DNA of 64,000 nucleotides from Sedimentisphaerales bacterium (GCA_963666285.1 OY762711.1); one strand, 5' to 3'. Counted from the stretch's first letter, positions 31,631 to 52,285 are shown. A program made the numbers and translations. The notes: generated by a model from the sequence alone, not told the origin.

Positions 31631-31849
31631 TCTAATATAACTGTCTAAATAAGAATCAATATTAAAATTATATAAATTCCTACATTTTCAATACTTAGCA
31701 ACAACGCCAAGTTTCCAAACTTACAAAATCGTCGCTCAAAAGCCCGCCAGACTGTCACAATAGTACATGTCAGACTTGACTTTTCAAGCCACACCTTCAA
31801 TAGTATGTAATGATACCCTACCAATCAAAATATAAAAAGGAGATTTTAT

Positions 31850-33697: not shown

Positions 33698-33883
33698 ACT
33701 CCAAAAATACACTTTTTTATTCAAAAACTGACTGATAATGACGGTTTCTTCTATTTTTTTGCCTTTTTAACCGCTTTTATGACGCCAGTATTGCATTGAT
33801 TAGTACAAAAAAGGTATAATATATCATTATCTAAATCTAGTTTATATATGAATTGTGAATTGTGTTGAATAATGGAGGATAAT

Positions 33884-35785
33884 ATGAAATCACTGTATGC
33901 TTTATGTATAATTCTTACACTGTTGTTTGTTGACGCCCAGACTTCAAAAGCAGAAACACCACCAACTAATCTTGCCTTATCACAACCGCTTACCCGTGCA
34001 GTTTTTCAGCGAAACGATCAAAATTGGGCACAAGTTCCTATCCAGGGAACATATAGTGGCACTGCCACCAGAATTGAAGCACGCGCTATTATAATGGACG
34101 GTTTTACAGGCACTGCCACCAACTGGTTAACAATTGAAAACAATCCATCCGATGGCAGTTTTTCCTCTACCCTGAAAATATCGGCCGGAGGATGGTATCA
34201 ACTAGAAGTACAGGCATACAACGGCGACACCCCTTCATCTATCACCAGAGTTTATAGAATTGGCGTCGGTGAAGTTTTCATCACTGCCGGACAGTCCAAT
34301 TCTGCTAACTGCGGTTCTCCGGCTTATACTCCTGCTCATAGCACCGTTTCTGCATGGACCGGCACTAACTGGCGACATGCCTACGATCCCCAGCCAATCG
34401 CAAGCTGCACTGGAGGATCACCATGGTCAAGGCTCGCCGACCTGCTCATCGACGAATTAAACGTTCCGATTGGCTTTGTTTCCGTAGGTGTAGCCGGTAC
34501 CAGAGTTGACCGATGGGTTCCTTCAGCTAACGACTTGTATCCTCTATTGCATGATGCTATCATGGATATTGGGCCTACCGGCATGCGGGCGATCCTCTGG
34601 CATCAAGGAGAAAGCGACGCTGTCAGACCTCCGACAACTGATACAGAAACTTATGCCGCAAGGTTAAAACAGGTTATCCAGCAATCCAGGATAGACGCCG
34701 GATTCCCGGTGCCATGGGGTATTGCACTGGTTTCATGGATGCCTGAATCATATAACCAGCAGGAAGAATGGCGGCAAGGTGTACGAAATGGTCAGATTAA
34801 AGTTATCCAGTCAGACCCTTTCAACTTCCTTGGCCCGGATACTGACATATGGCCGGGTTCTGAATTTCGACATGACACTATACACTTCAACGCTTTAGGA
34901 CTCCAGCTTCACGCCGAAGCCTGGATGCCTACTATCAGGCAAATTATGCATCCATGGGACTTAAATCAGGATACCCAGGTTAACTTGCTTGACCTTTCTG
35001 ATTTTTCCTCTTATTGGCTTGATGATAGATACTGGTTCGATAATAACAGTAATATGGCAATTCATCTAAAACTCGACGATGCTACCAACTCAATAGCTTC
35101 CGACTCTTCCGGGAATAACCGCAATGGTACTTTATTCAATAATCCAACATGGGCCGGTGGAATATATAATGGTGCTATTAGTTTCGACGGCATCGACGAC
35201 TATATTCAGATCGAAGGATACACAGGAATCTCAGGCTACAATCCAAGAACTATTACCTCATGGATCAAACTAAATGAAGACCTGGAAAATAATGACAAAA
35301 ACTTATATGTGATAATGTCATGGGGAAAATCTGACACCACTGATCTATATAAAAAATGGATGGTCTTGATTAATGAAACCAGCGGACAACTGGCATTAGC
35401 TATTTATGGTGCAAGAATCGTCGGCGGACCAGATCTGGAAGATGGTAAATGGCACCATATCGCAATTGTATTACCTGACGGTGCCAATAATATCAACCAA
35501 ATTAAAATGTTTGTTGACGGTATTGAAGTAGCCACTAATGCTGATAGCCTGAACGCTGTTATTGATACTACCGCTTCTGAAGATGTTCTTATTGGCACTA
35601 TAGACACTGACCCGGCAAATGGAATCCAACATCCAAATTATTTCTTCAAAGGGCTTATCGACGATATCAGAATATATGATGTAGCGATGACTGCCGACGA
35701 TTTCGTCCCTTCATGCGACCTCGATAGAAACGGAACCATTAATCTGGCTGACTTCTCCGTAATCGCCTCACACTGGCTCGAATAA
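33884..35785 (+). CDS. Secreted SGNH sialate O-acetylesterase-like (SASA) protein with LamG and dockerin-like motifs
   Basis: GEVFITAGQSNS, LWHQGESD, DTIHF; LamG WHHIAIV..FKGLIDDIRIYD; two DLxxxxxxNLxD..WL motifs. Confidence 0.85.
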   Translation: MKSLYALCIILTLLFVDAQTSKAETPPTNLALSQPLTRAVFQRNDQNWAQVPIQGTYSGTATRIEARAIIMDGFTGTATNWLTIENNPSDGSFSSTLKISAGGWYQLEVQAYNGDTPSSITRVYRIGVGEVFITAGQSNSANCGSPAYTPAHSTVSAWTGTNWRHAYDPQPIASCTGGSPWSRLADLLIDELNVPIGFVSVGVAGTRVDRWVPSANDLYPLLHDAIMDIGPTGMRAILWHQGESDAVRPPTTDTETYAARLKQVIQQSRIDAGFPVPWGIALVSWMPESYNQQEEWRQGVRNGQIKVIQSDPFNFLGPDTDIWPGSEFRHDTIHFNALGLQLHAEAWMPTIRQIMHPWDLNQDTQVNLLDLSDFSSYWLDDRYWFDNNSNMAIHLKLDDATNSIASDSSGNNRNGTLFNNPTWAGGIYNGAISFDGIDDYIQIEGYTGISGYNPRTITSWIKLNEDLENNDKNLYVIMSWGKSDTTDLYKKWMVLINETSGQLALAIYGARIVGGPDLEDGKWHHIAIVLPDGANNINQIKMFVDGIEVATNADSLNAVIDTTASEDVLIGTIDTDPANGIQHPNYFFKGLIDDIRIYDVAMTADDFVPSCDLDRNGTINLADFSVIASHWLE

Positions 35786-35795
35786 AACCACAATT

Positions 35796-35828
35796 CTGGG
35801 ATACAGGGCTCTGAACCTGTATTCCCGG
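35796..35828. terminator. Stem-loop between convergent genes
   Basis: gggatacagg...cctgtattcc. Confidence 0.5.
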
Positions 35829-35886
35829 ATATCAGTTAGTCGTAAGGCAATTTTTCCCATATGCCTTATGCCTGTTTATCTTCTCA

Positions 35887-36693
35887 CTATTCTATCCATA
35901 TCCCGTCATTCATATACGCCGCCGCATACGCATAGCTCATCTTATATCCGCTCCCTTTGGTATTACTATTACGGATCATAAACACACCGCCCCCAGGCAT
36001 ATCAGGATCATCCTCATAGCCGACCAGCAGGATACTATGCCCGTCAAACACACCATCAGGCCCCGGCATATTCAAAACTTTTTCCTTCCACTTAACTTTT
36101 TTCGGCCACCGGCACCCACCGCACACCGGCCGCCCACGGCTCAACACCTTCTTGACCTCCGCCAGCTCTTCATCGGTCAGTCCCGTTTTCGGGTCCCATT
36201 GTTTTATCCAGTGTATCCGCAGCTCATTCTCTTCAGATAACTGCCGCGCCTGCTCTTTCGCCGCTTCATCCGGCACCAGCTCAGGGTCAAACTTCTTCTG
36301 ATACTCCATCGCCTGCTCACCGCAAATACCGTACGCCTCGTAACCCTTCCACAGATCCGAAAAGAAACCGCCATCCTGCTTTTTGCCAACCACCTCGTTA
36401 GACGCCCAGTTCAGATACTCAACACTCAACCGTAAACCCTTATCCTGTTGGCATGCCACGGCATATTCCATCGCACCGACAACTGCAAATACCGAACATG
36501 TACCACGCCCGCCCTGCTGACGCTCCGACAGCCCCCACTTCTTAAACGCCGGCCTCAGGTCAACCCGCCCCGGCATATCATCCGAACCCGGTTGCACTGC
36601 TCCTTCGTCCGCACCCCGGCTCAAATTGCTAACACCGGCTATAACCAATGGTATAACTATCAACAATATTATTCTTCTTTTCCAGATATTCAT
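35887..36693 (-). CDS. C1 (papain-like) cysteine peptidase, secreted
   Basis: VDLR, QGGRGTCSVFA (Cys), GHSILLVGY (His), IRNS (Asn); start moved to MNIWKRR. Confidence 0.85.
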   Translation of the reverse strand: MNIWKRRIILLIVIPLVIAGVSNLSRGADEGAVQPGSDDMPGRVDLRPAFKKWGLSERQQGGRGTCSVFAVVGAMEYAVACQQDKGLRLSVEYLNWASNEVVGKKQDGGFFSDLWKGYEAYGICGEQAMEYQKKFDPELVPDEAAKEQARQLSEENELRIHWIKQWDPKTGLTDEELAEVKKVLSRGRPVCGGCRWPKKVKWKEKVLNMPGPDGVFDGHSILLVGYEDDPDMPGGGVFMIRNSNTKGSGYKMSYAYAAAYMNDGIWIE

Positions 36694-36745
36694 CTCTCTG
36701 ATCATCTGATAGCCATTTATCAAAAAATCTTCAGTATAATTTTCA

Positions 36746-37414
36746 TCAATATTCCGGCACTTCAATCTCAACCCGCCTGAGTTCAAATGACAGATCCACT
36801 TCCTGTCCCGTCTCCGGCACATATTTGCCAATTATTTCGGTGGTATATGTCCAGATATCATTTGCGATCAAGGCCCTTTCCCTCATCGGCTGAAATTCAC
36901 AATTTTCTGCCATTTTCAATAACTTACCAGCTTCGTCGTTTTCAACCAGCCAGAATACATCTTCGCCAACACAATAAGATTTACGCACCAGGCACATACA
37001 TGCATTAACAGGATCTCCAAGGATATTCATCTGGCCAAAACCATAGTCTGGCGGACCAAATTCCTCTATATATTTATATTGACCATTCACATTATCCAGA
37101 AATGCCAGCTCTGTTCGAAGTTCGGCCATTTTCCCCTTTGATATATGACCCTGGTAATATGGCGGGCCCGCTTCAATTTTATTACCCGACCAGATAAATG
37201 TACCGTCATGCCTGATCAGGTACATAACTTTTACCGTCACGGTATGGCCTCCATTACCAAATACCAGGATGAACGGCTTTTCAAATGTCTCACCGTCAGA
37301 TGTTACCGTATAACTCCACAACTTTTTCGCTGGCTCTGTCTGACACTTATCCGTTTCAGACCTCTGACAGCCGCTGATGATCAAACAAATTATTACACAA
37401 CTTAAATATCTCAT
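36746..37414 (-). CDS. Hypothetical lipoprotein
   Basis: MRYLSCVIICLIISGC lipobox. Confidence 0.65.
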   Translation of the reverse strand: MRYLSCVIICLIISGCQRSETDKCQTEPAKKLWSYTVTSDGETFEKPFILVFGNGGHTVTVKVMYLIRHDGTFIWSGNKIEAGPPYYQGHISKGKMAELRTELAFLDNVNGQYKYIEEFGPPDYGFGQMNILGDPVNACMCLVRKSYCVGEDVFWLVENDEAGKLLKMAENCEFQPMRERALIANDIWTYTTEIIGKYVPETGQEVDLSFELRRVEIEVPEY

Positions 37415-37700
37415 AACTGTCCACCGCACATCTTTCATTCTAATAACTCTATGTGACAAAATTAGTACTATTAATATAGGTGACCTCTGGAAATTGCTTT
37501 TGATGCGATAGTTTAAGATTTTGGTTGCTGACAAGGAACATAAGATCGTGCATATTGGGCTATATTCACTGTTATATGTGACGCATGTCAGCAGGCAAAA
37601 GAAAAACTAGTCGCTCAAAATGAATTTTCAGAGTTGCCTATATATCTAGCCATTGAAATCAAACCCGCCTCTGGCAAACACCTCCCCTACAGCACGCTCA

Positions 37701-38045
37701 CTACTGCCTGACCTCTTGTATAACTACCGCTGTCCCTTTACCATGAGCCATAATCAGAGATTTGTTCTTTGAACCGATATTATCAAAGTCCAGGCTAAAA
37801 CCAATTACCGCATTGGCACCCATATGGGCCGCATTAAATTGTATCTCAGTCAAAACTTCTGTTTCCATCTCACTCATTACCTCCTGATAACTTTCAGATC
37901 GACCTCCAAAGAAATCTCGAAACGCGGTAAAGAAATCTCGAATCACATTTACCGCCCGCACATTTCGTGAAGTAACCAAACCTTTATACTCAATAATTGT
38001 AGCGTTTTCAATTATCGGCGTTGTCAAAATTGGTATCTGTTTCAT
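37701..38045 (-). CDS. YbjQ/UPF0145 family protein
   Basis: I.EYKGLV, RDFFGGRS.SY, GANAVIG...D, GTAV. Confidence 0.9.
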   Translation of the reverse strand: MKQIPILTTPIIENATIIEYKGLVTSRNVRAVNVIRDFFTAFRDFFGGRSESYQEVMSEMETEVLTEIQFNAAHMGANAVIGFSLDFDNIGSKNKSLIMAHGKGTAVVIQEVRQ

Positions 38046-38081
38046 TACATTTTCCTTTCTTCTTCTAAAATTATATAAAGC

Positions 38082-38384
38082 TCTTCTATTATTTTATCAC
38101 AAACGAAACGAGTCACCTTATAATTATTGGTACTTATCGCAGCCTTGTATTTTTCAGTTCTTCTTAATTCTCAATTCTTATTTTTAATTTAAAGCATTCC
38201 CTTCATGGCCAGGTAATATTCTTTGCGAGCTCTGCGGCCTCTGCGAGCAACAGTATTTTTTTCGTATTGTTTTTTAATAACGTCCATAAAATATTACAAT
38301 ATATAATTGCAACAATTATAAAAGAGCCAACATATGCGTCAGCTTTTAAAATAAGGTCCAGTACCGTACGGTGCAGAACACCTC
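38082..38384 (-). repeat. Partial third copy (AT-rich outer tail only) of the large repeat element
   Basis: ttatcacaaacgaaacgagtcaccttataattattgg..., cccttcatggccaggtaatattctttgcga.ctctgcggcctctgcgagcaacagta shared with 40628-40810 and, inverted, with 46585-46711 and 48124-48175. Confidence 0.9.
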
Positions 38385-38453
38385 AACTCTCCCATTTTCC
38401 CTCTTACCTTTTACCTCTCCATCCTCTCTTCTAACTTCTAACTCTTCAATCTC

Positions 38454-39476
38454 TTACTTCATAATTTCTTCCCAGCTCATCCCGCATGTATCTTCATAAT
38501 AGCAGCGAAAGGCTTCTTCGTCCCAACCATCAGAACACTTCAACACAATTTGCCGAGCCACATCCAACATCATTTCCCGATCTTTTTCTATATTGAAAAA
38601 CTGACAAGACAAAAATTTGACATTTAATGCATAAAAGTTATCCGGATCGCCCTCAGGTATTGTGTCAAATATCACCCCGGCTGCAGCAATCTGCCCATCT
38701 ACACACAACGTTTCTCCCATCATTTCCAGCACGTCAACATCGTCAGGCTTTACCTTCAGCAATATACCGCATATTTTTAACGCCTCTTCTTCTTCATCGA
38801 TATCATAATAAAGTACCTCAGCTTTTTGTTTCAGCAAATCATAATTATCAGGATTGCCTTCAAGTTGCTCATCTAAACGACGAATAATTGCTACAGGGTC
38901 ATAAGTTATATTCTCCTTCTCTTGCCGGGCACATTCATTTCCCGACTCTATCGCCAAAACCTTATCAAAACATTCAAGAGCTCCCTCCTTATCATCCAGC
39001 ATGTTCAACAGCTTCGCTTTTGCATTTAGGGCACTAACACTTTCAGGCTTATTTTTCAAGATCCGGTCATAACATTCCAGGGCGTTCCCATGTCGTTCCA
39101 TATCTTGAAAAAAATCACCTTTACAGAACAAGGCATTATAATTGTTCGGATCTTTTATAAGAGCATTATCATAATACCCAATAGCTGTATCCTCTTGATG
39201 ATTTAACCTGAAATATTCTCCTATTCGCCACAGGATATAATCATCACAGGTCTCAATCCCCAGTAGCATCTCTTCGTATTTATCATACTCTCTATCACGA
39301 AAATATAACAGCTCAGCTTCAAAAAACTGCAAATAGTCACTATTGCCGTTAGCCTCAGCTAATTTAACACCTAGCTCCAACAGCTTTATACCATCAGCAT
39401 TACCATTACAGTCATTCACCAGGTAGCTGATATAATTATATGTTTCCTTAAGTTTTCCTGTTGTTTTATCACTCAT
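38454..39476 (-). CDS. TPR repeat protein
   Basis: Repeated A...YD.AL...P....AL..K motifs. Confidence 0.85.
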   Translation of the reverse strand: MSDKTTGKLKETYNYISYLVNDCNGNADGIKLLELGVKLAEANGNSDYLQFFEAELLYFRDREYDKYEEMLLGIETCDDYILWRIGEYFRLNHQEDTAIGYYDNALIKDPNNYNALFCKGDFFQDMERHGNALECYDRILKNKPESVSALNAKAKLLNMLDDKEGALECFDKVLAIESGNECARQEKENITYDPVAIIRRLDEQLEGNPDNYDLLKQKAEVLYYDIDEEEEALKICGILLKVKPDDVDVLEMMGETLCVDGQIAAAGVIFDTIPEGDPDNFYALNVKFLSCQFFNIEKDREMMLDVARQIVLKCSDGWDEEAFRCYYEDTCGMSWEEIMK

Positions 39477-39997
39477 TATTCAATCCAGATCTTGATGATA
39501 TAAAATTAAATGGTACCGCTCTTAATATACTATTTCATTTTTACTCGTACTGCTACCCTTTATATTCTTATTGCCATATCATTTTAGTCATCATAAATAT
39601 ATATCAAATTAAAACTTTTTCAAAAGAATAAACTTTTGCCTCAGCTGAAATAATCAGTATCCTGAAGAACATCGGGAGACATCGACACGCCTTCACTGAT
39701 ATGCCTTTTCAGTAGGCCCGGCACATTTTCCAGTCATCTATACTGTTTGCTCTTCTTCATTGTATCGATCATTATAATAGTATGTTTTTAACACTTCATT
39801 ATAGGCATAAATCAGCTCGTGCCGATTAACACTAAATTGTAAAAATAATCTATATATGTCCGCCCTTTCCACAAAAAAACAGCTGAGAAAACCTCACTAT
39901 TTACTTAATAACGCACTTTTTCCCTCTTCTAACTTGCAACTGCTATTTCCTAATTTATAACCCTGGTTTGAAACAGGACACCATCCAAAATCATGAT

Positions 39998-40552
39998 TCA
40001 ATCACTATAAACGAAAACATATCCAAATATACCATTATCTTCAACAAATTCTGAAAGATCACCAAAGACAATTAACTCTTGATCGTTATCATTTTGTAAA
40101 ACATAAAAAGTATAATCACGTTTTTTATATGGCAATTCTATTTGCAAAGAAATAGTTCCATCCTTTTTTGTTGCTTGATAAATCAAATTAAAAGACTTCT
40201 TGTGTAATGTAATATCCCATTGGTCAGTCACAACTTCTTCAGTACCAGGAAACTCAGGTTCGGATGGAACATGATAAAACACTTCTTTTCTAAACTGTGA
40301 ACTTGCCCATGACTTTTCAAAATTCCAAATATCAAAATATCCACAATTAGAAATTGGTTGTATCATCCCTCGAAACTTTCCATATGGAATCTCATAGGCT
40401 TTTATTGTTGCTGTTGTATGCTCTGTTAAAGCTTTAACGTTAACTTCAGGATATGAATTAGGCTTATATTGACATTTTTGATTAAACACCAGAGTACAAA
40501 CTATTACTATAATGCAAACTATCGCTAAAATACTAACTATTTTGGTATGCAT
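39998..40552 (-). CDS. Hypothetical membrane-anchored protein, low GC
   Basis: N-terminal TM helix; RBS AAAGG. Confidence 0.7.
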   Translation of the reverse strand: MHTKIVSILAIVCIIVIVCTLVFNQKCQYKPNSYPEVNVKALTEHTTATIKAYEIPYGKFRGMIQPISNCGYFDIWNFEKSWASSQFRKEVFYHVPSEPEFPGTEEVVTDQWDITLHKKSFNLIYQATKKDGTISLQIELPYKKRDYTFYVLQNDNDQELIVFGDLSEFVEDNGIFGYVFVYSD

Positions 40553-40627
40553 TAGTGACTTACCTTTCTATCTTTTAAACAAATAAATGATTAATAATTC
40601 ATATTTCTTCTCATCCACGTAATCAGT

Positions 40628-41381
40628 TCTTCTATTATTTTATCACAAACGAAACGAGTCACCTTATAATTATTGGCACTTATCCGTAGCCGTGGTTTTT
40701 AATGTCAATTATTTTTTTAATTTTTAATTTTGAATTCTTAATTTAATGCTTTCCCTTCATGGCCAGGTAATATTCTTTGCGACCTCTGCGGCCTCTGCGA
40801 GCAACAGTATTTTTTCGTGTTCTTTCGTGAATTTTCGTGGTTGACAATCTTTTTCAGAATTCTGAATTTAAATATGCGACAGCTTTAAAATAAGTTGTGA
40901 GCGACAGCGAATTATTCCTGATGTCAACGTACATCAGGACACCTCCTTTACAATTTTTATTTTACCCTTTACACTTTGATGCCGCTTCGCGGTATCTGGT
41001 CTGCCCAGCAGCTAAAAACAGGTCGAAAGCCTCAATGTAAATTTCCGCCGTTATAGCTCCGCGGCCCGTAGCGCACCCGCCGTTGGCCTGCCGCACTACC
41101 GCCGCATACTCTCCGTTTGTATTCCGTGATACCACAAGAGCTCTTCTCACCGCCGCGCCAATCCACAGCTCCTCCGCAAGCCGCCGTGGCCCGCGGCCCG
41201 GTCTCCGTCACTCGCCGCTGGCCGACTCAGCCGGTTTCAGCTCTTCTTCCCGCCGCGCTAGCGCCGCGGCCCGCCGTTTATACTCCGTTATCCGCCCGCG
41301 AATATTCCGCAGGTCGTCGCGGTTCCTCCGTTTCGATCTATGGCCGTTCGTACAAAAAAATACAATTATAAACCACACTCC
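40628..41381 (-). repeat. Large non-coding element, left copy: phased RCGG array (about 41000-41353) plus AT-rich tail
   Basis: Reverse complement aligns almost throughout with 44492-45014, 46585-46711 and 48124-48175. Confidence 0.93.
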
Positions 41382-41444
41382 AAAAGCTTTGATCGCCACA
41401 TCCGCTTTTGGTAGCACCAAAATCTAATCCGTTACTCATTTCAA

Positions 41445-43508
41445 CTATTCGGCAGGAACAAATATCCTCGGATTTGCCAGCAAAGTTTCAGCGGCAAAAG
41501 CCATCATCGCCAGTATCAGCAAAGGCACAAAAAGGTCAAATCTTGCAGTACGCAAAAATGCCAGTTTGCTATAGTCGGTGTACTGGTCAATAGTAGCTAT
41601 ACTATGAGCTATCCCGCCAAAAAGTTCGATACTGGTAGTACCATCAGGCATATAATCAAATCGCCCTTCATCGCTATCAGAACTAAATGCCACGGCATAA
41701 CGTCCTTTATCACAATCAATTAGCAATACCGCAGGCCTAACCGGCGAGACAAAACCCAGATAGTCGCCTGTATAGTCAACAGTATCACCGGCGATAGATA
41801 ACGCATGGATATTACCGGCAAAGATATTCACCGGCAGTTCCTGACCGGCCGCCAGGTGGATCACATGTTTGTCCAACGCATCTAAGTTACTGCTGTCATC
41901 AGGTTTAACAACAACCATATTCTGTGCCATAACCACACTCAGCGGCTGCTTGGGCAGGCTGCTCCAGCGGGTGTCAAAAGCCATCCCCAGCACATAAACA
42001 TTGCCTTTGCCGACCTTCCGGCGTGACATGACAATATCCTTATATCCTGCTCCTAAAAGGGTTTCTGTTCCGCTGGTAAGCTTGAGCTTATAGCCCTGCC
42101 AGATGGTCATATCCTCAACGTTTATCTGCCTGGAACCAAAGACTTTATACCAGAACTCACTCTTACGGTCCATCACTTCCAGCCGCCTGCCCTGGCTCTC
42201 GGCAAACCGCTGCTGAACTTCTGCACCCATAAAATCAGGCAGTACTACTTCACTGCCACGCTCGCTGACTGCCGGAACTGCAACCAGGTTGCCGCCATCG
42301 TTTACATAGCTTTCAAGCCAGCCGGGGTTAGTCTTGTCCAATGCTGTAACCGACTGCCAGGTAAGTACTAACATCTCAGGCTTTGACTCATTTACATACT
42401 CATAAACCCTGCCGACCGCACGGAAGGTTGTACCAATTCCGGTAAAAGATGCATCACCAAGCGGCGAAACTGCCAGTGGTAATAAACCATACTCATTCGG
42501 CGAACCGGCAAAAACTACGTTCGCCGGTGACCCGCAGCTTACTACTGCCATGCCGTAACCATCGGCATTAAAGCTGTCACCCTCAATGTGGGCCGACCAT
42601 GACCGAAACCCGCTTTCACCCGGCGGCAGCTGCATCGTTACCATCCGGCTCGACCCCTGCTGCATATCGACATCCCGACTCTCAACTGAGCCGGTACCAT
42701 CATCTAATACCAGGGTAACATTTCCGTCATAATCGCTTGTATTTTCCAGGTTTATGTTCACTGTCGCCGGGTGGCCGGGCAGTATCATCTCCGGCGGATA
42801 GCTAATTGACCGGATAGCAACATTTGCCCCGTTCTGGTCCTGCGGCATGATCTTGTGCACCTGTATCGATACATCTTTGGCACCACCGATAGTCCCGGCA
42901 TATTCAAACTGATGACGCTGCAGGTCGGTAAAAATATGAATTGTACCGCCGGTCTCCAGTAGATCAATAGATTCCCTAACTGCTTTTAACAAATCACCTT
43001 GTGAATATGTTGGCAATACCTGGTCTATAGCTTCCAGGATAAGATTGCGGTCTGTCACTATGGTATCGGGCAGCTTAGAAATTGATGGATCAACAACAAC
43101 AGTCCGCAGCCCAAAGCTCCCTTTGTCTATTGTTCCCAGCAGTTTACCGGCAGCATCCTTAGCCATATCCAGGCAGGTGATATGCCCACCCTGCTCAATT
43201 CGCAGCATAGAGGCAGAGTTATCAATAACCACGACCATCGAAGTAACACCACTTTTGGAAGTACCGCCAAGATTGAATGACGGTCGGCTGAGAGCAAGCA
43301 GCAGAAAGGCCAATACCAACATACGCATAAGTAAGACCAGTAACTGTCGTAACTTATGACGTGCGGTCATCTTGGGATCGGTCTTGTGAAAGAACATAAG
43401 AGTCGGAAACTGGACGTACCTTTTCTTTTGCTTGAGCAAAAAATGGAATACAATCGGCAGCCCGGCCAGCGGCAGCAGCATAAGAAAGAAACCCGATGAA
43501 AATATCAT
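41445..43508 (-). CDS. BatA N-terminal domain plus vWA domain membrane protein
   Basis: LPIVFHFL.......FPTL.F, LLMR.L....L.LAL.RP, VVIDNSASM (MIDAS), IFTDLQ; C-terminal TM. Confidence 0.88.
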   Translation of the reverse strand: MIFSSGFFLMLLPLAGLPIVFHFLLKQKKRYVQFPTLMFFHKTDPKMTARHKLRQLLVLLMRMLVLAFLLLALSRPSFNLGGTSKSGVTSMVVVIDNSASMLRIEQGGHITCLDMAKDAAGKLLGTIDKGSFGLRTVVVDPSISKLPDTIVTDRNLILEAIDQVLPTYSQGDLLKAVRESIDLLETGGTIHIFTDLQRHQFEYAGTIGGAKDVSIQVHKIMPQDQNGANVAIRSISYPPEMILPGHPATVNINLENTSDYDGNVTLVLDDGTGSVESRDVDMQQGSSRMVTMQLPPGESGFRSWSAHIEGDSFNADGYGMAVVSCGSPANVVFAGSPNEYGLLPLAVSPLGDASFTGIGTTFRAVGRVYEYVNESKPEMLVLTWQSVTALDKTNPGWLESYVNDGGNLVAVPAVSERGSEVVLPDFMGAEVQQRFAESQGRRLEVMDRKSEFWYKVFGSRQINVEDMTIWQGYKLKLTSGTETLLGAGYKDIVMSRRKVGKGNVYVLGMAFDTRWSSLPKQPLSVVMAQNMVVVKPDDSSNLDALDKHVIHLAAGQELPVNIFAGNIHALSIAGDTVDYTGDYLGFVSPVRPAVLLIDCDKGRYAVAFSSDSDEGRFDYMPDGTTSIELFGGIAHSIATIDQYTDYSKLAFLRTARFDLFVPLLILAMMAFAAETLLANPRIFVPAE

Positions 43509-44419
43509 ACTGCCCTGCTCCTTTCGAGCAGCACATCATATATCTCACGACTGGTTTCAGCCAGAACATACTGGCCGCGAATATTCATAACCCCTTGCCG
43601 AAGCTCGTTTAAGTAGCTGTGCACCTGGTCCTGATAGCTTTCCTTGATCTGGTCGAGATCTACCAGTACCTTACCACCTGTCTCCATACATTCGATATCG
43701 GCCATGGATACGCCATCAGAAAACGCATCGGAAGGCAGCCGCAGTTCGGCCGGGTCGAGTACATGATAGATACTAAGCTCTTTGCCCTCATGGTAGAGGT
43801 GTCTCATGCCGGTGAGGATACTGTTCGGCTCTTCGAGCAGGTCGGAGATAACAACTATAAGTGCTTTACCTTTAACCAGTTCCGCGGTTTTATGCAGTAC
43901 CGATTCCAGGTCACTTTTGCCGCCGGGCTGAACGGCATCGAGATTCTGTAGAATCGGTTTAAGCCCCATATAGTTTGATGCCGGGCCGACATGATCGATA
44001 ATCTTGTTATCAAAAGTAATAAGTGAAACGGAATCGCCCTGCCGAGTCATGGCATATGCCATGCCGGCGGCGAGATAGCAGCTGTACTCAAGTTTGGTAA
44101 GCCCGCCTATGCCGCTGTTATGGTAGGCCATACTATTGGAAGTATCGAGCAGGATATGACATCTGATACTAACATCCTCGTGATACTGGCGGATAACGTA
44201 CCGGTCGCTTCGAGCGTAAACCGGCCAGTCAATACGACTTACGGGATCACCGGGAATGTATTCGCGATACTCGGCAAACTCAACCGACGAGCCGAAAGCG
44301 TTGGAATGGTGCAGACCCTGATAGTGGCCGTCCATCGGCCGCCTTACGGTATACTCCAGGGCATGAAGCCGTTCGGCCATAGTCGCGGGCAGATATTTGT
44401 AGCTGTTTTCTGATGCCAT
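43505..44419 (-). CDS. DUF58 domain protein (MoxR-associated vWA-like)
   Basis: G.H.S..FG.SVEFAEYREY.PGD...IDW.VYAR, LLD.S.SM, VISDL; start at ATG 44419; overlaps the next start (ATGA). Confidence 0.92.
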   Translation of the reverse strand: MASENSYKYLPATMAERLHALEYTVRRPMDGHYQGLHHSNAFGSSVEFAEYREYIPGDPVSRIDWPVYARSDRYVIRQYHEDVSIRCHILLDTSNSMAYHNSGIGGLTKLEYSCYLAAGMAYAMTRQGDSVSLITFDNKIIDHVGPASNYMGLKPILQNLDAVQPGGKSDLESVLHKTAELVKGKALIVVISDLLEEPNSILTGMRHLYHEGKELSIYHVLDPAELRLPSDAFSDGVSMADIECMETGGKVLVDLDQIKESYQDQVHSYLNELRQGVMNIRGQYVLAETSREIYDVLLERSRAV

Positions 44420-44429
44420 ATAGTTTCCT

Positions 44430-44458
44430 ATTTTAGCTTTACGATTGCCAAGTATCAA
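44430..44458 (-). promoter_or_regulatory. Predicted sigma70 promoter for DUF58-BatA
   Basis: TTGATA-17 nt-TAAAAT, 10 nt upstream of ATG 44419. Confidence 0.45.
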
Positions 44459-45137
44459 TGACTAATAAAGTGAATCGAAGGTGTGATGTTCGGTATGTTG
44501 GTTTGTAATATGTTTTATCGGTACGAACGGTCACAGATCGAAACGGAGTAGCCGCGACGGCCTGCGGAATATTCGCGGGCGGATAACGGAGCATAAACGG
44601 CGGGCCGCGGCGCTAGCGCGGCGGGAAGAAGAGCTGAAACCGGCTGAGTCGGCCAGTGGCGTTTAACGGAGACCGGGCGGCGGGCCACGGCGGCTTACGG
44701 CGGGCCAGCGGATTGGCGCGGCGGTGAGAAGAGCTCTTGTGGTATCACGGAATACAAACGGAGAGTATGCGGCGGTAGTGCGGCAGGCCAACGGCGGTAG
44801 TGCGGCGGGCTGCGGAGCTATAACGGCGGAAATTTACATTGAGGCTTTCGGCCTGTTTTTGGGTGTTGGGCAGACCAGATGCCGCGAAGCGGCTTTTAAA
44901 GTGTAAAGGGTAAAATAAAAAGTGTAAAGGAGGTGTTCGCCTGGCGGCTCACAACTTATTTTAAAGCTTTCGCATATTTAAATTCAGAATTATGAAAAAG
45001 ATTGTCAACCACGAAAATACAATGAAAGCCAGAATATTCCTGTAGCATGGCTTGTGTTATAATACACAATAATTTTAGCACGAGCTGTCACAGGGACGCT
45101 CAAATATTTAACCAATTTTATACGGAGTATTCTGGCT

Positions 45138-46184
45138 ATGAAGACTATTATGTCAATTGATTTAGGAAAATTCAAGAGTGTAGTTTGTTTTTATGAGGTA
45201 AAAAGCTGTAAGGCTATATATAAGTCGTTTAAGACTAACCCTCAAGAGCTTCATGACCTGGCAGTATCTCACCCTGCTGATCTTATTGTATTTGAGGCTT
45301 GTGATATCATAGGCTGGATTTGTGACCTTTTTGACACCCTGGAATTAAAATATGAAGTGGCAAATACTAATACCGGCGAATGGTCTGGCAGAAAATTGAA
45401 GAAGAAAACAGATAAAAAGGATGCATTTTGGCTGGCCAAGCGTGCTGCTTTAGGAGATTTATCAACTGTCTATGTTCCTAAAAAGGAAATTCGAGAGAAA
45501 CGATCTTTAATTAATTATCGCCAGAGCCTTACAGAACGGATAACTCAGGTAAAAAATACTATTCGTTCTTTATTAAATGCCCAGGCGTATTCGTTGCCGT
45601 CAGGCAGAAAGTGCTGGTCTAAGCAGAATCTGGAACAGTTAAGAAGTATGGCTATGCCAATGGATAAAGTTAAACCAGATGAGCTCTGGAAAGGCAATCT
45701 ATGGAGCGAGCTTATATTACTGGAACAATTAACAGACGCTTTGCAAGTAGTTGAAGATAAACTGGAAGAGTTAAATAGTACTGATGAAAAGGTAAAACTA
45801 TTACAGACTGTTCCCGGAGTTGGCCCACGTCTGGCAGAGGCAGTTGCAGCTTATATTGATGATCCACATAGATTTAAGAATTGCAAACAAGTTGGCAGCT
45901 ATATTGGTATGACACCGCGTCAGTACCAATCAGGTAATACAGACCGTCATGGGCGGATAAGTAAATATGGCAATAGGTTATTGCGAGCATTACTTGTTGA
46001 GGTTTGCTGGCTGGGTTTGCGTTGGAATCCATGGATAAAAGAAACATACGAAAGAATAAAGAGGGGAAGTAAAACTCGTGCAAAAATAGCGATAGTAGCT
46101 ACAGCCCGACGGTTGTTCGTACGATTGTGGGCGATGATGCGAGATGGGACAAGTTGGCAGATGCCTGAATTGCAAAGTGTTTGA
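45138..46184 (+). CDS. IS110 family DEDD recombinase/transposase
   Basis: IDLGK, FEAC, KTDKKDA, TVPGVG, GMTPRQYQSG, GRISK.GN..LR. Confidence 0.95.
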   Translation: MKTIMSIDLGKFKSVVCFYEVKSCKAIYKSFKTNPQELHDLAVSHPADLIVFEACDIIGWICDLFDTLELKYEVANTNTGEWSGRKLKKKTDKKDAFWLAKRAALGDLSTVYVPKKEIREKRSLINYRQSLTERITQVKNTIRSLLNAQAYSLPSGRKCWSKQNLEQLRSMAMPMDKVKPDELWKGNLWSELILLEQLTDALQVVEDKLEELNSTDEKVKLLQTVPGVGPRLAEAVAAYIDDPHRFKNCKQVGSYIGMTPRQYQSGNTDRHGRISKYGNRLLRALLVEVCWLGLRWNPWIKETYERIKRGSKTRAKIAIVATARRLFVRLWAMMRDGTSWQMPELQSV

Positions 46185-46199
46185 TACCAATATAAGTAA

Positions 46200-46560
46200 A
46201 ATATAAATATTACCTATGATTTTGCCCGATTGAAATCGATACGGAACCTTGGTCGTGCATTTGGGTTTTGAACCTGACACGAAAATTAAGCCGTATCGCA
46301 ATATATATAATGGAACCATGGCGTAAAATACAGCCTCGGACACTCCGGATAGAAAGATGAAACAATCAGGTAAATAATGATTCGCTACGCGAAAATTGTT
46401 TTAAATAGGTTTATCGCATAAGGTCAAAAAGCAAAAAACGAGGCGGTGTAAAACCGCCCCGGCTTCTTGACAACTTGCAACGCTCGGGTTGCTCCTCAGC
46501 AGAGCCCTATCCTTTGCAAGATAAAGGAATTATAGCAAAAATGAATAAAATTAGAAAATT
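46200..46560 (+). ncRNA. Predicted bridge/seek RNA region of the IS1111 element (ends unknown)
   Basis: Stem cgatacgg/ccgtatcg (46237-46298) encloses two guide-like segments matching the insertion site, separated by a small hairpin. Confidence 0.7.
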
Positions 46561-46777
46561 AATGTTGCATTCTGGCTTCATAGAAAATTCACGAAAGAAC
46601 ACGAAAAAAACACTGTTGCTCGCAGAGGCCGCAGAGCTCGCAAAGAATATTATTTGGCCATGAATGGAAAACTTTAAATTAAGAATTCAAAATTAAGAAT
46701 TAAGAAGAACTTGTCTGGTCCTGTGATAAGTTGTCACATTATAGATTTAATGTTTTAACAAATAACAGGAGACAACA

Positions 46778-47197
46778 ATGTTGGTAAGTAAACGAACTTA
46801 TAATCGCTACAGCGAAGCCTTTAAATTACAGGTGGTAAATGATCTTGAATCTGGTAAGCTAAGCAGTATTTATGAGGCTAATTCCCGCTATGGGATTTCT
46901 GGTACAACAACAGTAAAGAGTTGGCTAAGAAAATATGGCCGTAACCATTTGATACCAAAGGTGATACGCGTGGAAAAACTAGATGAACAAGATCATGTAA
47001 AGAAGTTAGAATCAGAGATTAAGCAGCTTAAAGAAGCGTTAGCAGACAGCCATATAGAGAATATTGTAAGTGAAGCCAGGTTTCAGGTTATTTGTAAAGA
47101 ATACGGGCTGGATCCCGAGGAGTATAAAAAAAAAGTCGATACCAAACGGTTCAACAAGCGTCCGAGGCAACCGTTGAAAAGAAAGAGGAAAAAATAG
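46778..47197 (+). CDS. IS3 OrfA (HTH)
   Basis: RYSEAFKLQVV...YGI...TV..W.RKYG; A9G slippery run at 47126-47135. Confidence 0.9.
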   Translation: MLVSKRTYNRYSEAFKLQVVNDLESGKLSSIYEANSRYGISGTTTVKSWLRKYGRNHLIPKVIRVEKLDEQDHVKKLESEIKQLKEALADSHIENIVSEARFQVICKEYGLDPEEYKKKVDTKRFNKRPRQPLKRKRKK

Positions 47198-47226
47198 CGA
47201 TAACTTCCTTATGCAAAGCTGTTGGC

Positions 47227-48012
47227 ATGAGTCGTCAGAATTATTATAAATCACATAAAGTTCGGCGCAGGCGGCACTATGAAAAAGACCTGATAATATC
47301 TTTGGCCAGGCTGGAAAGATCATTGCAGCCTGAGATGGGTTGCAGAAAGGTTTTGAAGCGTATAAAGCCCAAACTGGCAAAAGCCGGTATTAGTATAGGG
47401 CGAGATAGATTTTATGAAACGATGTCAGAAGCAGATATGTTGATAGAGCGTAAAAAGCGAAGTGTGACAACGACAGACAGTCGTCATAACTTTAAGACTT
47501 ATAAGAATATACTGAAAGATGAAGAGCTTACAGGAGCCAATCAGGCCCTGGTAAGTGATATAACGTACATATATACAGATGAAGGATTTATGTATCTGTC
47601 GTTGATAATGGATGCATTTAGTCGCAAGATAGTTGGCTATGACTGTAGTGATAGTTTGGAAGCAGAAGGTTGTTTGCGTGCATTAACAAAGGCGATAAAG
47701 CAATTGCCCAAAGGTAGTAATACGATACATCATTCAGATCGTGGCAGTCAGTATTGCTGCCATAGATATATAGATAAGCTTAAAAGAAATGGGCTGCGAG
47801 TTAGTATGACCGAAGATAATCATTGTTATGAGAATGCCCAGGCCGAGAGGTTAAACGGTATATTGAAGCACGAGTATGGATTGAAGAATACGTTTAAGAA
47901 AAAAGCTCATGTTCATGCTGCGGTTAAACAGGCGATAGAACTGTATAATACCTGTCGTCCACATTTTGCTTTGGGATATCGTGTGCCTGAGGAAGTGCAT
48001 ATGGCGGCGTGA
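47227..48012 (+). CDS. IS3 OrfB (DDE integrase core), probably expressed as OrfAB by -1 frameshift
   Basis: SDITYI, HHSDRGSQY, ENAQAERLNGILK.EY; the -1 frame is open from the A9G run. Confidence 0.92.
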   Translation: MSRQNYYKSHKVRRRRHYEKDLIISLARLERSLQPEMGCRKVLKRIKPKLAKAGISIGRDRFYETMSEADMLIERKKRSVTTTDSRHNFKTYKNILKDEELTGANQALVSDITYIYTDEGFMYLSLIMDAFSRKIVGYDCSDSLEAEGCLRALTKAIKQLPKGSNTIHHSDRGSQYCCHRYIDKLKRNGLRVSMTEDNHCYENAQAERLNGILKHEYGLKNTFKKKAHVHAAVKQAIELYNTCRPHFALGYRVPEEVHMAA

Positions 48013-48350
48013 TATATTCCTCCGTTCCGGTCGCCCTTCGGGCTCCCTGCACTACGGAATATATCATCAAAAAACAATAGTAAATAGAAACGGAAAGTGA
48101 CAACTTTAAATCAGGACTTGACACTGAAAAATACAAGACTGCGATAAGTGCCAATAATTATAAGGTGGCTCGTTTCAGCCTTCGCTAAAGCTATGGTTCA
48201 ACAAGACCGCACGTGATTAATAATTTTGAACCACTGATGCACGCGGATGGACACCGATAAGAAAATGTTTAGAGATAACTAACAAATTAAATGCAGTTGA
48301 ACTTCAAACATAGAACAAAAATAATAGTAGTATTAGAGAATGCTGCTTTT

Positions 48351-49912
48351 GGGAGTGTTCATTTGACTGTGTAAATGGTACTATTGGTATAGGCAGAATA
48401 CACTTCTGTCTTGAAATTTACACATTTCTATATTAACTTGTATATTATCGTTCTGAAGGATAGGGCTCTGCTGAAGAGCAACCTGAGCGTCAGAATGATG
48501 CCGAGACAAAAGGCTCTGGAAGAACAAACATTTTCCACGAGCCTTTTATTTTGTTTTGGCTGATAAGCGAAAAACTTATAAAAACAGCTCCGCCAAAGGC
48601 GGCACCTCTTTTATCTTTCAGGCATTCGATCGCCGAACTTGATAGCGAACTGGTTTATCGCCTGATTCCAGCATCTAATTGGCATTGTCCACTTTTTAGA
48701 TATGTTTTCAAGAGCCAAATAGAATATCTTTAAGATCGATGCTTCGCTAGGGAATGCACCTTTAGTTTTGATAACTTTTCTCAGAGAACGATTCAGAGAT
48801 TCAATTGCATTGGTGGTATAAATCGCTTTACGGATTTCTGGCGGATAATCAAAAAACGGTATGATGTTTTGCCAGTTATTACGCCAGCTTTGGCTAACCA
48901 TAGGGTACTTATCATCCCATTTTTGAGCAAATTCGTCCAGAGCCATTTCAGCTTCCTGCTCAGTGGCTGCGGTATAGATTAGCTTTAAATCAGCACATAG
49001 CTGTTTGCGATCTTTCCAGTTAACAAACCGCACTGAATTACGAACCATATGTACAATACATAACTGTACCTGGGTTTTAGGGAAAACGGCTTCTATAGCT
49101 TCTGGAAAGCCTTTTAAGCCATCTATGCAAGTGATGAATATATCTTTAACACCTCGATTTTGAAGCTCTGTAATGATATTAAGCCAGAATTTTGCTCCTT
49201 CAGTTTTAGCTATCCAGATACCCAATAATTCCTTCATGCCATCCATATTTACACCGAGAGCAAGATAAACTGACAAATTGGATACTTTGCCGTCCTGGCG
49301 ACATTTAACAACAATACAGTCAAGGAATACTATTGGATAAACTTCATCCAAAACTCGATTTTGCCAGGATTTAACTTCCTGCATTATACTCTCGGTTGCC
49401 TGGCTGATAAGACCTTCAGAGACATCAACGTGATACATATCCAGAAGACATGCCTGAATATCACGGACACTCATACCACGACCATACATGGCTATGATCT
49501 TATCATTAAAACCTTCAAAATACTTCTCGCCCTTGGGGATAAGCTTAGGTTCAAAGGTGCTGTTGCGGTCACGGGGAGGATTAAGTTCAACTTCGTCAGA
49601 ATCGATTACAACAGACTTTTTACCATTGCCATTACGACTATTGCCACTGTTATTGCCCTTAGGGTCATGCTTGCTGTAGCCCAGATGGTCGCTCATCTCT
49701 GCTTCTAAAGCTCGTTCAACTATTCGTTTTTTGAGCTCAGAAAATAAACCTGATTCTCCCCAAAACTCCTCCGGAGTATTGTAACCTCCTAGAAGCTCAT
49801 CAATTAACTCATCTTTACGTTTGTCTTGTGCCGATCGTTTAGCCATAGTTCTTTACCTCACATTATAGGTTAACAAATCTATGACCATTTACACAGTTTA
49901 ATTTACACCCTC
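48351..49912 (-). mobile_element. IS256 family element, 8-bp TSD CTGCTTTT
   Basis: TIRs GGGAGTGTTCATTTGACTGTGTAAATGGT and ACCATTTACACAGTTTAATTTACACCCTC; TSD at 48343-48350 and 49913-49920. Confidence 0.95.
48611..49846 (-). CDS. IS256 (mutator-type) transposase
   Basis: PRDR..TFEP, VFLDC, IDGLKGF, CIVH, YTTNAIESLN. Confidence 0.95.
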   Translation of the reverse strand: MAKRSAQDKRKDELIDELLGGYNTPEEFWGESGLFSELKKRIVERALEAEMSDHLGYSKHDPKGNNSGNSRNGNGKKSVVIDSDEVELNPPRDRNSTFEPKLIPKGEKYFEGFNDKIIAMYGRGMSVRDIQACLLDMYHVDVSEGLISQATESIMQEVKSWQNRVLDEVYPIVFLDCIVVKCRQDGKVSNLSVYLALGVNMDGMKELLGIWIAKTEGAKFWLNIITELQNRGVKDIFITCIDGLKGFPEAIEAVFPKTQVQLCIVHMVRNSVRFVNWKDRKQLCADLKLIYTAATEQEAEMALDEFAQKWDDKYPMVSQSWRNNWQNIIPFFDYPPEIRKAIYTTNAIESLNRSLRKVIKTKGAFPSEASILKIFYLALENISKKWTMPIRCWNQAINQFAIKFGDRMPER

Positions 49913-50317
49913 CTGCTTTTCACTTATAAATATCTTCATTATCCTAAAATCCCTTAATAATAGATTTCCATTTTAAAATACATAGTTGTTCCAGATTCAG
50001 TTTAGTCAGAATTTACAAAATATCTCCCTGAAATTCATTCCAAGATCTATTAACCAGACAATCAGACAACCAGACAACCTGTCAATAACATTTTCCCAGC
50101 CTTAACTGCCAAATATCTCCTTTTCAAATCTATTCATTAAATTACTCCCCAACATTTTCACATATCCACTATTCATCCAATTCATCATACCACACCTCCA
50201 GCAATACCTGTAGCATATCCAACACCTCAATCAGCTTCTCATCTATAATCCAAATCAGGCATACAGCCCCAAAAATGGAAGGCAAGATATAACATGAATA
50301 ATAAGCCTTCAAAAACC

Positions 50318-50755
50318 TTACCACCACGGACGATAGTGGCTTGAGAGTCTTTTTACCGAATAGTAATCATTTTCACAAGTAAAAACAAAAACATCAATAT
50401 CACTTGGTAGATCTGAAACACAATAGACTTTAATCAATATTTTATTATTTCTTGTAAGTTCTTCAAACACGTTATCATATTTTGATAAATCTAACTCAAT
50501 ATTTGTGCATTTTTGAGGGTAAATGTTTTCGTTTAATTTATCTTTTACTTTTAGAAGTATTTCATCTTCTGAATAAAGACTTATGTTATGAATAAAAACA
50601 AAAGCCAAACCAACTGTTTTAAATTTGATTACTGGTTGTTTTTTATTAACAATATATGCTTCTACTCCATGGTAAGGAATTATTACAAGATAAATAATAG
50701 TCAAAGAAACAATAAAAACAACAAGAAGCGGTATAATTATTTTTTTTACTTTCAT
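50318..50755 (-). CDS. Hypothetical membrane-anchored protein, very AT-rich (possible orphan immunity protein)
   Basis: N-terminal TM helix; lies downstream of the Rhs remnant. Confidence 0.55.
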   Translation of the reverse strand: MKVKKIIIPLLVVFIVSLTIIYLVIIPYHGVEAYIVNKKQPVIKFKTVGLAFVFIHNISLYSEDEILLKVKDKLNENIYPQKCTNIELDLSKYDNVFEELTRNNKILIKVYCVSDLPSDIDVFVFTCENDYYSVKRLSSHYRPWW

Positions 50756-50957
50756 TATTTATCCAAATTGGTCTATGTTGACTGGACTGTTCCTTGAAAT
50801 TTAGCTCAGAATATATTAAACAGGTTACCTGGGTATCTTGTCAATCACATTTTTTTGAGTCTGATACGATAAATATCAGGCTGAATAGTCTAACATTGCT
50901 CCTCTATGCCCCTAACTCGCCACCCCCTGAAGTGGCAGAATAATGCAACATTAACAG

Positions 50958-50994
50958 AATATTGACATCCCGCACAGTACTGGATGTCAATATT
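50958..50994. terminator. 13-bp perfect inverted repeat
   Basis: aatattgacatcc...ggatgtcaatatt. Confidence 0.5.
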
Positions 50995-51137
50995 TTGCAA
51001 AAGCCTTATTACTTTTCTAGTCTTTATCGCCGGTTTTTAGATTTCTTTAGCCAGAAGCTATAACGCATAGGACTTATCATCTTGGGACTCCAAGAGCCAA
51101 ATATGGTTGGTTGGGGGAGAAGTTATAACTTATTTCA

Positions 51138-51701: not shown

Positions 51702-51719
51702 AAAATACCTCTATGTGAA

Positions 51720-52181: not shown

Positions 52182-52285
52182 TCAGGGATAACTTTACTTG
52201 TGAAAGAACCATAAAGCAGGTTGTAATTATAGTTCCCTGATGTTAAAATGCCAGAAGAAATTAATATTTTAGGCCAGTTGTAGAA

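Follow-up and report, generated by a model that had tools for sequence, protein, structure and literature searches.

We describe here a back-to-back pair of phased CCGY arrays in the chromosome of a Sedimentisphaerales bacterium (GCA_963666285.1, OY762711.1; G000 among the genomes compared below). The two arrays belong to a set of about 70 oriented intergenic elements, and the site is not the replication origin of this bacterium. The window, by which we mean the whole 64,000-nucleotide stretch analysed, corresponds to C1:4,608,001-4,672,000 of a 6.15-Mb contig. The left array (41045..41347, plus strand) carries 30 CCGY words per 300 bp, compared with 4 on the opposite strand, with spacing peaks at 10/11, 21 and 31/32 bp, and has its skewed domain to the left; the right array (44527..44829, minus strand, reading RCGG on the plus strand) carries 34 against 2 per 300 bp and has its skewed domain to the right. 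On its skew side each array is accompanied by an oriented 14-bp box with the family consensus CATCTGGTCYGCCCA, at 40994..41007 on the plus strand and at 44867..44880 on the minus strand (exact matches at C1:4648994-4649007 and C1:4652867-4652880, respectively). The two arrays form the arms of an inverted repeat (40954-41375 and 44499-44920, 88%). Between them lie a BatA/vWA gene (41445..43508, minus strand; Pfam PF07584 and PF13519), with the polarity of the left array (G72/C101), and a DUF58 gene (43505..44458, minus strand; PF01882), with that of the right (G52/C36).

The skew flip in the window

The preliminary description of this DNA had noticed that GC skew flips between the arrays, and its four 60-nt spot counts were exact on recounting (10G/27C, 14G/26C, 19G/14C and 26G/15C). 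It had placed the change near 43 kb, close to the midpoint of the arrays. The flip does fall between the arrays; when G-C is summed over all bases of the window, the curve is lowest at 43,729, 0.8 kb to the right of that midpoint, inside the DUF58 gene and not at the end of a repeat or insertion sequence (IS). Its independence of coding strand was likewise borne out at fourfold-degenerate sites, where the sign changes in plus and minus genes alike. In the 30 kb left of the pair these sites count G446/C1195 (a skew of -0.46; plus genes -0.41, minus genes -0.51) and in the 30 kb to the right G813/C485 (+0.25; plus genes +0.46, minus genes +0.20), with fourfold T/A running opposite to G/C, from +0.05 on the left to -0.24 on the right. 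At all positions taken together the flip is not sustained: 1-kb skew is negative again at 49-52 and 56-59 kb, the cumulative curve ends level (-7.58 at 44 kb, -7.61 at 64 kb), and the local minimum ranks 28th of 43 genome-wide by prominence (495 vs 14,913 for the global minimum).

The left domain (13600..40600) has a plus strand that is C-rich at the fourfold sites of both gene strands (G378/C1090), with 135 GAG and 438 CTC, and here the effects of array and replichore add up. The right domain (45000..64000), with a plus strand G- and A-rich at fourfold sites, opposes its replichore (G286/C66 and T96/A160 at 52286-56747; G225/C142 and T193/A324 at 56810-64000).

The chromosomal origin

On the strength of the C-rich to G-rich switch, the preliminary description had suggested that the arrays might define a bipartite origin. 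There is indeed a local skew minimum between them. The global cumulative GC-skew minimum, however, lies at C1:5,742,437, 1.09 Mb from the pair, with the maximum at 2,697,613 and arms of 3.11 and 3.04 Mb. The oriC region (C1:5,739,570-5,742,250) is flanked by gyrB-dciA-dnaN and parB. In scans with the DnaA-box and parS consensus sequences, four one-mismatch DnaA boxes within 500 bp at 5,740,156 made up the joint best cluster of the chromosome, and its only two perfect parS-type palindromes were found at 5,741,897 and 5,742,070. The window has no perfect DnaA box and only two one-mismatch boxes in 40-46 kb, in agreement with the earlier observation that no DnaA-box cluster is present at the pair. 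Two dnaA genes are found at 6.147 and 1.186 Mb, 0.4 and 1.6 Mb off oriC, and none adjoins it.

The base signature differs as well. Replication in this cell leaves G>C with T>A (from one side of oriC to the other over +/-300 kb, G/C goes from -0.12 to +0.08 and T/A from -0.13 to +0.07), whereas at the array pair G>C is combined with A>T. An array also sits near oriC, and over the +/-30 kb around that origin T/A is unchanged (0.11 and 0.08). Contig depth has no peak at the pair, which is weak evidence in the same direction. A canonical oriC elsewhere explains the chromosome-wide skew, a finding that the preliminary description had itself named as speaking against an origin here. With the global minimum, DnaA boxes, parS, dnaN and parB all at 5.74 Mb, we regard a bipartite chromosomal origin at the pair as virtually excluded. 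A phased array at 5,745,878 is 3.4 kb from the global skew minimum.

A chromosome-wide set of phased arrays

The suggestion that other skew minima be inspected for similar arrays proved fruitful: skew steps elsewhere carry three additional back-to-back pairs and about 60 arrays that stand alone. A scan with a threshold of at least 12 CCGY per 300 bp returned 113 windows, of which 63 were intergenic, 47 coding and 3 mixed (dropped). A phasing score alone recovered 59 of the 63 together with 16 further windows, 7 of which were kept by eye, and three weaker arrays were added from inspection of unexplained steps, for a total of 73. Because steps guided us to these three, any proportion given out of 73 is slightly circular, a weakness that proportions out of 63 do not share.

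The two arrays described here belong to a 12-copy family in which eight copies form four back-to-back pairs at distances of 3.5-4.7 kb and the remaining four stand alone. Judged by eye, the arrays from the CCGY scan make up no fewer than four families without relation to each other, besides some singletons, with a common grammar of CCGY on one strand and spacing peaks at 10/11, 21, 31/32, 52 and 62 bp (a phase of about 10.5 bp). Plasmid iterons and centromere-like arrays are likewise built of short words in helical phase over 100-300 bp, and the elements have this helical phasing. They differ from plasmid iterons in being chromosomal, in many copies and of several unrelated families, with no cognate gene alongside at the four pairs. 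The box (CATCTGGTCYGCCCA) occurs on one fixed side, within 1.5 kb, at 57 of the 73 arrays, and 57 of the 58 boxes near arrays are co-oriented with the array. Arrays are indifferent to the replication fork (39/72 are oriented with it), while convergent neighbours are never less than 30 kb apart, their median distance being 96 kb vs 43 kb for divergent ones (permutation p 0.0004).

The genes inside the four pairs are unrelated (BatA/DUF58; NusG/VTT; ferredoxin oxidoreductase/3'-5' exonuclease/ExbD; B12-binding/RidA-like). The arms do not enclose the common cargo or recombinase of a composite transposon or invertible segment, and no cognate initiator or adaptor gene lies beside this pair or the three others. 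Nor does the array resemble a structured non-coding RNA: Rfam gave no match at E<=1 in window 40000-46000, and the G-rich strand of the right array, the one array folded, folds no better than shuffles (z -0.95). Promoter and terminator scans were near chance (12 vs 6.9 +/- 2.7, and 4 vs 5.0 expected).

A one-sided purine footprint

We read skew along the RCGG strand and call its 5'-3' direction ahead. Between 0.2 and 10 kb ahead of the 63 intergenic arrays, G/C skew at fourfold sites stands at +0.25 to +0.31, and it then falls through 0.21, 0.16 and 0.11 to 0.09 out to 60 kb; behind the arrays it reaches 2-5 kb and is about 0 beyond 5 kb. Skew ahead is positive at 61 of the 63, including 26 of the 28 that face the fork, and in all 16 windows found by phasing alone. 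The ahead-minus-behind step of 0.217 compares with -0.003 +/- 0.026 in 2000 shifts (maximum 0.083). The 47 CCGY-rich coding windows, which served as controls, have skew on both sides and no step (27/47). The footprint is equal in sense and antisense genes, and we therefore reject transcription of the genes themselves as its cause. The box alone can also be set aside, since 12 intergenic boxes without an array have ahead>behind in only 6/12 cases, and in 2/6 outside known fields.

After correction for replichore and gene strand, G exceeds C ahead of 71/73 arrays and A exceeds T ahead of 67/73, as against 36/73 and 39/73 behind. In a regression the array field contributes +0.33 to G/C and -0.25 to T/A, and the replichore +0.07 and +0.13. 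Since the sign of T/A is reversed relative to G/C, the mark distinguishes purine from pyrimidine and not keto from amino. When GAG/CTC polarity is taken in 5-kb steps, 33% of its variance is accounted for by the array field, 18% by the replichore and 48-51% by the two jointly, with a best-fit decay length of 25-30 kb ahead and 2 kb behind. The polar elements and their purine footprint on one side form a genuine system that extends over the whole chromosome.

An array lies within 7.5 kb of 33 of the 50 largest polarity up-steps and of 3 of the 50 largest down-steps (background 16%); at four more of the top-50 up-steps an array in the predicted orientation is farther off or weaker. Strong up-steps with no array within 10 kb are seen near C1 2,890, 5,090, 1,005, 1,285, 3,095 and 4,810 kb.

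These steps bear on a reading in which the domains are relics of inversions, islands or IS boundaries and the arrays are mere recombination breakpoints. IS110, IS3 and IS256 elements beyond the right array, a DUF58-BatA pair without MoxR upstream, and the absence of any syntenic pair spanning an array (0/65 and 0/94, at low power) would fit such a history. It would not, however, make arrays coincide with up-steps only. Moreover, the domains decay and are not flat, their signature is unlike that of the replichores, gene orientation is unchanged, and leading-strand octamer polarity is kept across window 40-80 kb. Step asymmetry and the T/A sign largely refute this reading, which we hold to be very improbable.

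G increases in all contexts tested, and C and T drop most after a pyrimidine. GAG/CTC is the most polar triplet (16,385:7,279); where the CCGY strand codes, the amino acids E, K and R shift by -0.17, -0.16 and -0.11 log2. Fourfold G+C is higher ahead of arrays than behind (0.43-0.44 vs 0.37). Gene orientation does not follow that of the domains (sense fraction about 0.5), and leading/lagging differences are still visible inside them.

Mobile DNA follows the same polarity. Repeat cassettes more than 3 kb from arrays match array polarity by 90:1 in strong, 36:1 in medium and 41:21 in weak field, and cassette D5, in which G and C are balanced, is still oriented (17/17 in strong and medium field). 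Within the window the dispersed short cassettes (13823..48490; families D2, D4, D5, D7, D12, D18 and I2, I3, I5, I8) are mutual direct repeats left of the pair, and the copies to its right are inverted relative to them. An IS110 element, with a copy at window 44790-46698 and others at 8 further places, has 8 of its 9 copies in array domains in matching orientation. Oriented insertion of the repeats and of IS110 suggests a physical difference between the strands. Two other repeated elements likewise lie to the skew side of arrays, and most of their copies match the arrays in orientation. IS copies were unusable as a record of mutation, being too alike.

The same data could be read as selection and not mutation, the domains being runways of purine-rich words, such as GAG and purine runs, for a translocase, for Rho-resistant long transcription or for stable RNA-DNA hybrids launched from the array. 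That GAG/CTC is the most polar triplet, that even cassettes in which G equals C have a set orientation, that the coding effect exceeds the intergenic one and that array spacing is non-random all agree with this. But G is up in every context tested, codon-level shuffling leaves little word excess (GAG 0.18 log2; best 5-mer GAGCG 0.81), and E, K and R shift as they would under mutation pressure, and we judge selection unlikely as the source of the footprint.

Comparison with known systems

Chi (acted on by RecBCD/AddAB) and KOPS/SRS (FtsK/SpoIIIE) are dispersed single words that are polarised by replichore and act on one side, depending on orientation. The elements share the one-sided, orientation-dependent action, and the cell encodes FtsK as well as AddA and AddB (ADDB_N with PDDEXK_1, and UvrD with PDDEXK_1). 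They differ in being phased arrays with a box, and their 39/72 orientation with the fork is not the origin-to-terminus orientation of KOPS/SRS. As for Chi, AddAB is present, but RCGG 5-mers have a leading fraction of 0.44-0.59 and an observed/expected ratio of 0.76-1.27. Phage pac-like sites would be looked for on contigs C2-C4, each of 65-67 kb, which have no phased array and 0, 0 and 1 box. These contigs are similar to each other and to chromosomal stretches (about 66-74% identity). In the features that could be compared, the elements do not conform to oriC, Chi, KOPS, a pac-like site, a composite transposon or a structured RNA; the only trait of the classes compared that they possess is iteron-like phasing.

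Sites of DNA transfer such as oriT, the clt-like sites of Streptomyces and the transjugation origins of Thermus resemble the elements in having protein-bound repeats, many chromosomal sites and polar processing (PMC3218068, PMC5365140); here, by contrast, no PF02534 coupling protein and no conserved neighbour gene were found, and the available text on those systems reports no strand-skew footprint. The elements might be sites (oriT-, clt-, pac- or Chi-like) at which transfer or recombination of chromosomal DNA begins or ends with a fixed polarity, and mismatches in the incoming strand would then be corrected with a strand bias. The raised fourfold G+C ahead of arrays, the tiling of the chromosome by 72 sites and the presence of AddA and AddB would suit this, as would the precedents of chromosomal clt-like sites and multiple transfer origins (PMC3218068, PMC5365140). 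On the other side, PF02534 was found in 0/5 genomes searched (G000 being 97% complete), a search that covered neither other coupling families nor relaxase families; contigs C2-C4 lack a phased array; and RCGG words are neither over-represented nor leading-biased away from arrays (AGCGG 767:716, observed/expected 0.96). We consider transfer or recombination sites quite improbable.

Like a bacterial oriC, the pair has a C-rich to G-rich switch from which the G-rich strand leads away. Unlike oriC, there are about 70 elements, mostly single and one-sided, with a decay within 60 kb, A>T and no DnaA boxes. The arrays might still be auxiliary unidirectional origins for run-off or stress replication by another polymerase set, in which case the pair would be a true secondary bidirectional origin. 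The G-rich strand running 5'-3' away from the site gives origin-like geometry, and the iteron-like phasing, the box and the AT-rich DNA beyond it would also befit an origin. Purine asymmetry has been linked to PolC, and genomes that bear PolC are known to have G>C with A>T (PMC5291525); skew has also led others to propose several origins per bacterial chromosome, though they concede that it may have other causes (PMC3269012). Run-off replication in Bartonella provides a case of local DNA synthesis outside oriC, but from one phage-derived, bidirectional origin beside phage genes, and the word "skew" is absent from that paper (PMC2697382).

Against auxiliary origins, the T/A sign opposes that of the cell's own forks (field -0.25, replichore +0.13), PF07733 was matched once only, genes are not co-oriented with the domains, and leading/lagging differences persist inside them. 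Contig depth, furthermore, is 14 between the arrays vs 25-32 about 10 kb to the left, a value from one sample that does not stand for copy number. Toward the pair (window 26600-44600) depth descends stepwise, as 31, 26, 23 and 14 in run X1 and 25-31, 19, 15 and 14.5 in run X2; snap-back of the inverted repeat could cause the drop. Both runs are of one sample, possibly the genome's own source. The segment 41284-44590 was recovered from each without differences as a single contig, and no listed piece spans the arrays. Bearing on whether the inner segment occurs in both orientations, an opposite-strand joint (41120/44823) has 35-38 letters on its short side, and the shared repeat explains it equally well. 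In sum, an auxiliary origin strikes us as improbable.

Mutation hotspots anchored at DNA breaks in E. coli, which depend on RecBCD resection and DinB, have a gradient that likewise peaks near the site, extends about 60 kb and is independent of replication direction (PMC3607216). They differ in lying on both sides of an induced break, where the footprint here is on one side, set by the orientation of a native element, and in using DinB, whose presence here does not predict domains.

Relatives and databases

Overdispersion of GAG/CTC is 6.0-14.4 in 13/13 blocks of G000. Two genomes of the same genus, G003 and G001, have values of only 2.5 and 2.7 and no domains in the parts read, which amounted to 400 kb out of 4.6 Mb in G003 and 320 kb out of 4.3 Mb in G001, and G031, G037 and G045 (200 kb each) have no domains either. 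When domain genes are compared with their G003 and G001 orthologues, the latter have no skew at the corresponding sites, and the changes favoured in G000 on the RCGG strand are T>G, T>A, C>G and C>A; because the sites are near saturation, this comparison speaks to composition more than to rates. Phased-pattern matches number 43 in G000 (control 2), 0 in three same-genus genomes genome-wide and 0-8 elsewhere, mostly near control; the exact box occurs 41 times in G000 and 0-2 times per genome in 60 relatives, and element DNA was found in 0/60 relatives. Metagenomes yielded no family-B 21-mer. Scans of GTDB and metagenomes for the phased pattern gave at least 114 and at least 117 stretches, with flanking DNA for 80 from each; judged by eye, most were tandem repeats of a simple 10-11-bp unit. 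Such simple repeats on CCGCCGY are found in many unrelated bacteria and metagenome contigs.

Two further genomes, G017 (contigs C28 and C30) and G020, do have polarity domains (overdispersion 11.0 and 17.8), with repeats oriented by local polarity in 290:32 and 119:40 pairs, respectively, which are not independent of one another. In G020:C12, 100-540 kb, saw-tooth domains recur about every 50 kb, with a common 160-bp intergenic element at two or three steps. Long one-signed skew in G056/G060 and in G017:C30 is inseparable from replichore skew.

Among candidate proteins, FtsK, ParB, Y1 transposase, UmuC and DnaE showed no difference that tracks the presence of domains among genomes; Y1_Tnp (PF01797) has 5 matches in G000 and is also present in all 4 relatives, and the terminase PF03237 has one match each in G000 and G003. 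A HerA-like ATPase is patchy (12/61 genomes including G000); in G000 it is encoded beside an N4/N6 methyltransferase on an island at C1:2,956-2,960 kb, and a second copy, 64% identical, lies at 3,379 kb.

Proposed mechanism

In light of the foregoing, what might the arrays be? Our preferred reading, to which we give a probability of roughly 0.54, is that each is a polar entry site for a process that tracks along DNA in one direction and replaces one strand. Dependence on orientation, an abrupt edge at the rear and a slow decay in front are the traces expected of a machine that is loaded with a fixed polarity and falls off at random, and phasing suggests binding to double-stranded DNA on one face. 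The preliminary description had thought of a bidirectional helicase/translocase entry point. That idea pointed the right way, but each array works in one direction only, and the pair looks bidirectional because two one-way arrays sit back to back.

A protein would bind the array along one face of the helix and load a moving machine, which would travel away from the array, 5'-3' with respect to the RCGG strand, over distances that vary around a mean of about 25-30 kb. As to the chemistry, we suggest only tentatively, and think it rather unlikely in this exact form, that a nick is made at or near the box and that the RCGG strand is displaced or degraded and then remade on a transiently single-stranded CCGY strand with misinsertion of purines. 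Such misinsertion, with which the base spectrum is compatible, might occur where template purines are damaged or missing, or an error-prone polymerase might be responsible. Insertion of dAMP opposite abasic sites is known in E. coli (PMC4167244), oxidised dGTP, placed opposite A, causes A-to-C changes (PMC5542668), and site-anchored mutation gradients are known to reach about 60 kb (PMC3607216). Over long times all four pyrimidine-to-purine transversions would accumulate on the RCGG strand, and repeats and IS that target single strands would insert in one orientation. Back-to-back elements would then produce a C-rich to G-rich switch that mimics an origin, superimposed on replication from oriC.

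Several observations weigh against a strand-replacing process entered at the arrays. The link between arrays and domains rests on one genome: the steps in G017 and G020 are without phased CCGY arrays, G020 has T>A together with G>C, and pattern matches in other genomes have no flank asymmetry (38/71 high-GC and 3/5 mid-GC loci with flanks). No candidate trans-acting protein separates genomes with and without domains. DinB is present in G000, G017 and G020 and absent from G001-G003, yet it occurs in domain-less G031 and G045, and the HerA-like ATPase is also in domain-less G031; neither is retained as the cause. Divergence is not raised in domains (fourfold identity 0.36 and 0.36; 0.39 and 0.36), at sites near saturation. 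Within G000, 13 of the 50 largest up-steps lack an array, domain strength is unrelated to CCGY count (rho 0.01), and of the four pairs the one at 248 kb has no raw T/A reversal and the one at 1250 kb is weak. The array effect on G/C is smaller in intergenic DNA than at fourfold sites (0.15 vs 0.37; the replichore effect is 0.11 vs 0.06), and fourfold counts depend on gene calls from our own hexamer model (4,038 genes, 84% coding). Finally, the A-rule predicts a larger gain of A than of G, and what is observed is G +0.06 to +0.09 vs A +0.01 to +0.05.

We are a little short of even odds on a broader claim, namely that the roughly 70 polar sites serve an undescribed machine which remakes or exports one strand over tens of kb, outside replication, and that the same process runs in G017 and G020 with another site code. 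No paper describing the phenomenon turned up among those listed by literature searches whose coverage left out most subscription papers. Strand skew in bacteria is usually taken as a mark of replication and transcription. Here there is a third asymmetry, site-anchored and stronger, tied to a defined cis element, and since the position, direction, range and base spectrum of its footprint are all predicted from sequence, the hidden DNA transaction becomes testable. It offers a concrete alternative to the "multiple bacterial origins" inferred from skew plots, and in such genomes skew switches are no evidence of misassembly or extra origins. If the strand-replacing process is real, it outweighs replication skew, shifts amino-acid usage and sets the orientation of mobile repeats.

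Neighbouring features

Just past the right box lies an IS110-family transposase gene (45138..46184, plus strand, Pfam), followed downstream by IS3 (46778-48012) and IS256 (48611-49846), also assigned by Pfam. The DUF58-BatA/vWA pair (41445-44458) lacks an upstream MoxR gene, and the right array and IS110 occupy that place; six strong PF07726 matches are found elsewhere in the chromosome. The left domain contains genes for a UvrD/PcrA helicase and a DNA photolyase (window 15181-19467). A PEP-CTERM match is in keeping with a planctomycete host. A second ParB-like protein is encoded at L108:8447-9973, on an island that also encodes ArdC and a type I restriction system; its best match, PRTRC-system ParB, is below cut-off. 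A small GC-rich hairpin read from the sequence (40978..40996, plus strand) belongs to a dispersed repeat cassette and overlaps the left box; its region is matched in part at over 100 chromosomal places. A palindromic TGG-N5-CCA box (41409..41419, plus strand) flanks the left array on its far side and is present at part of the other arrays.

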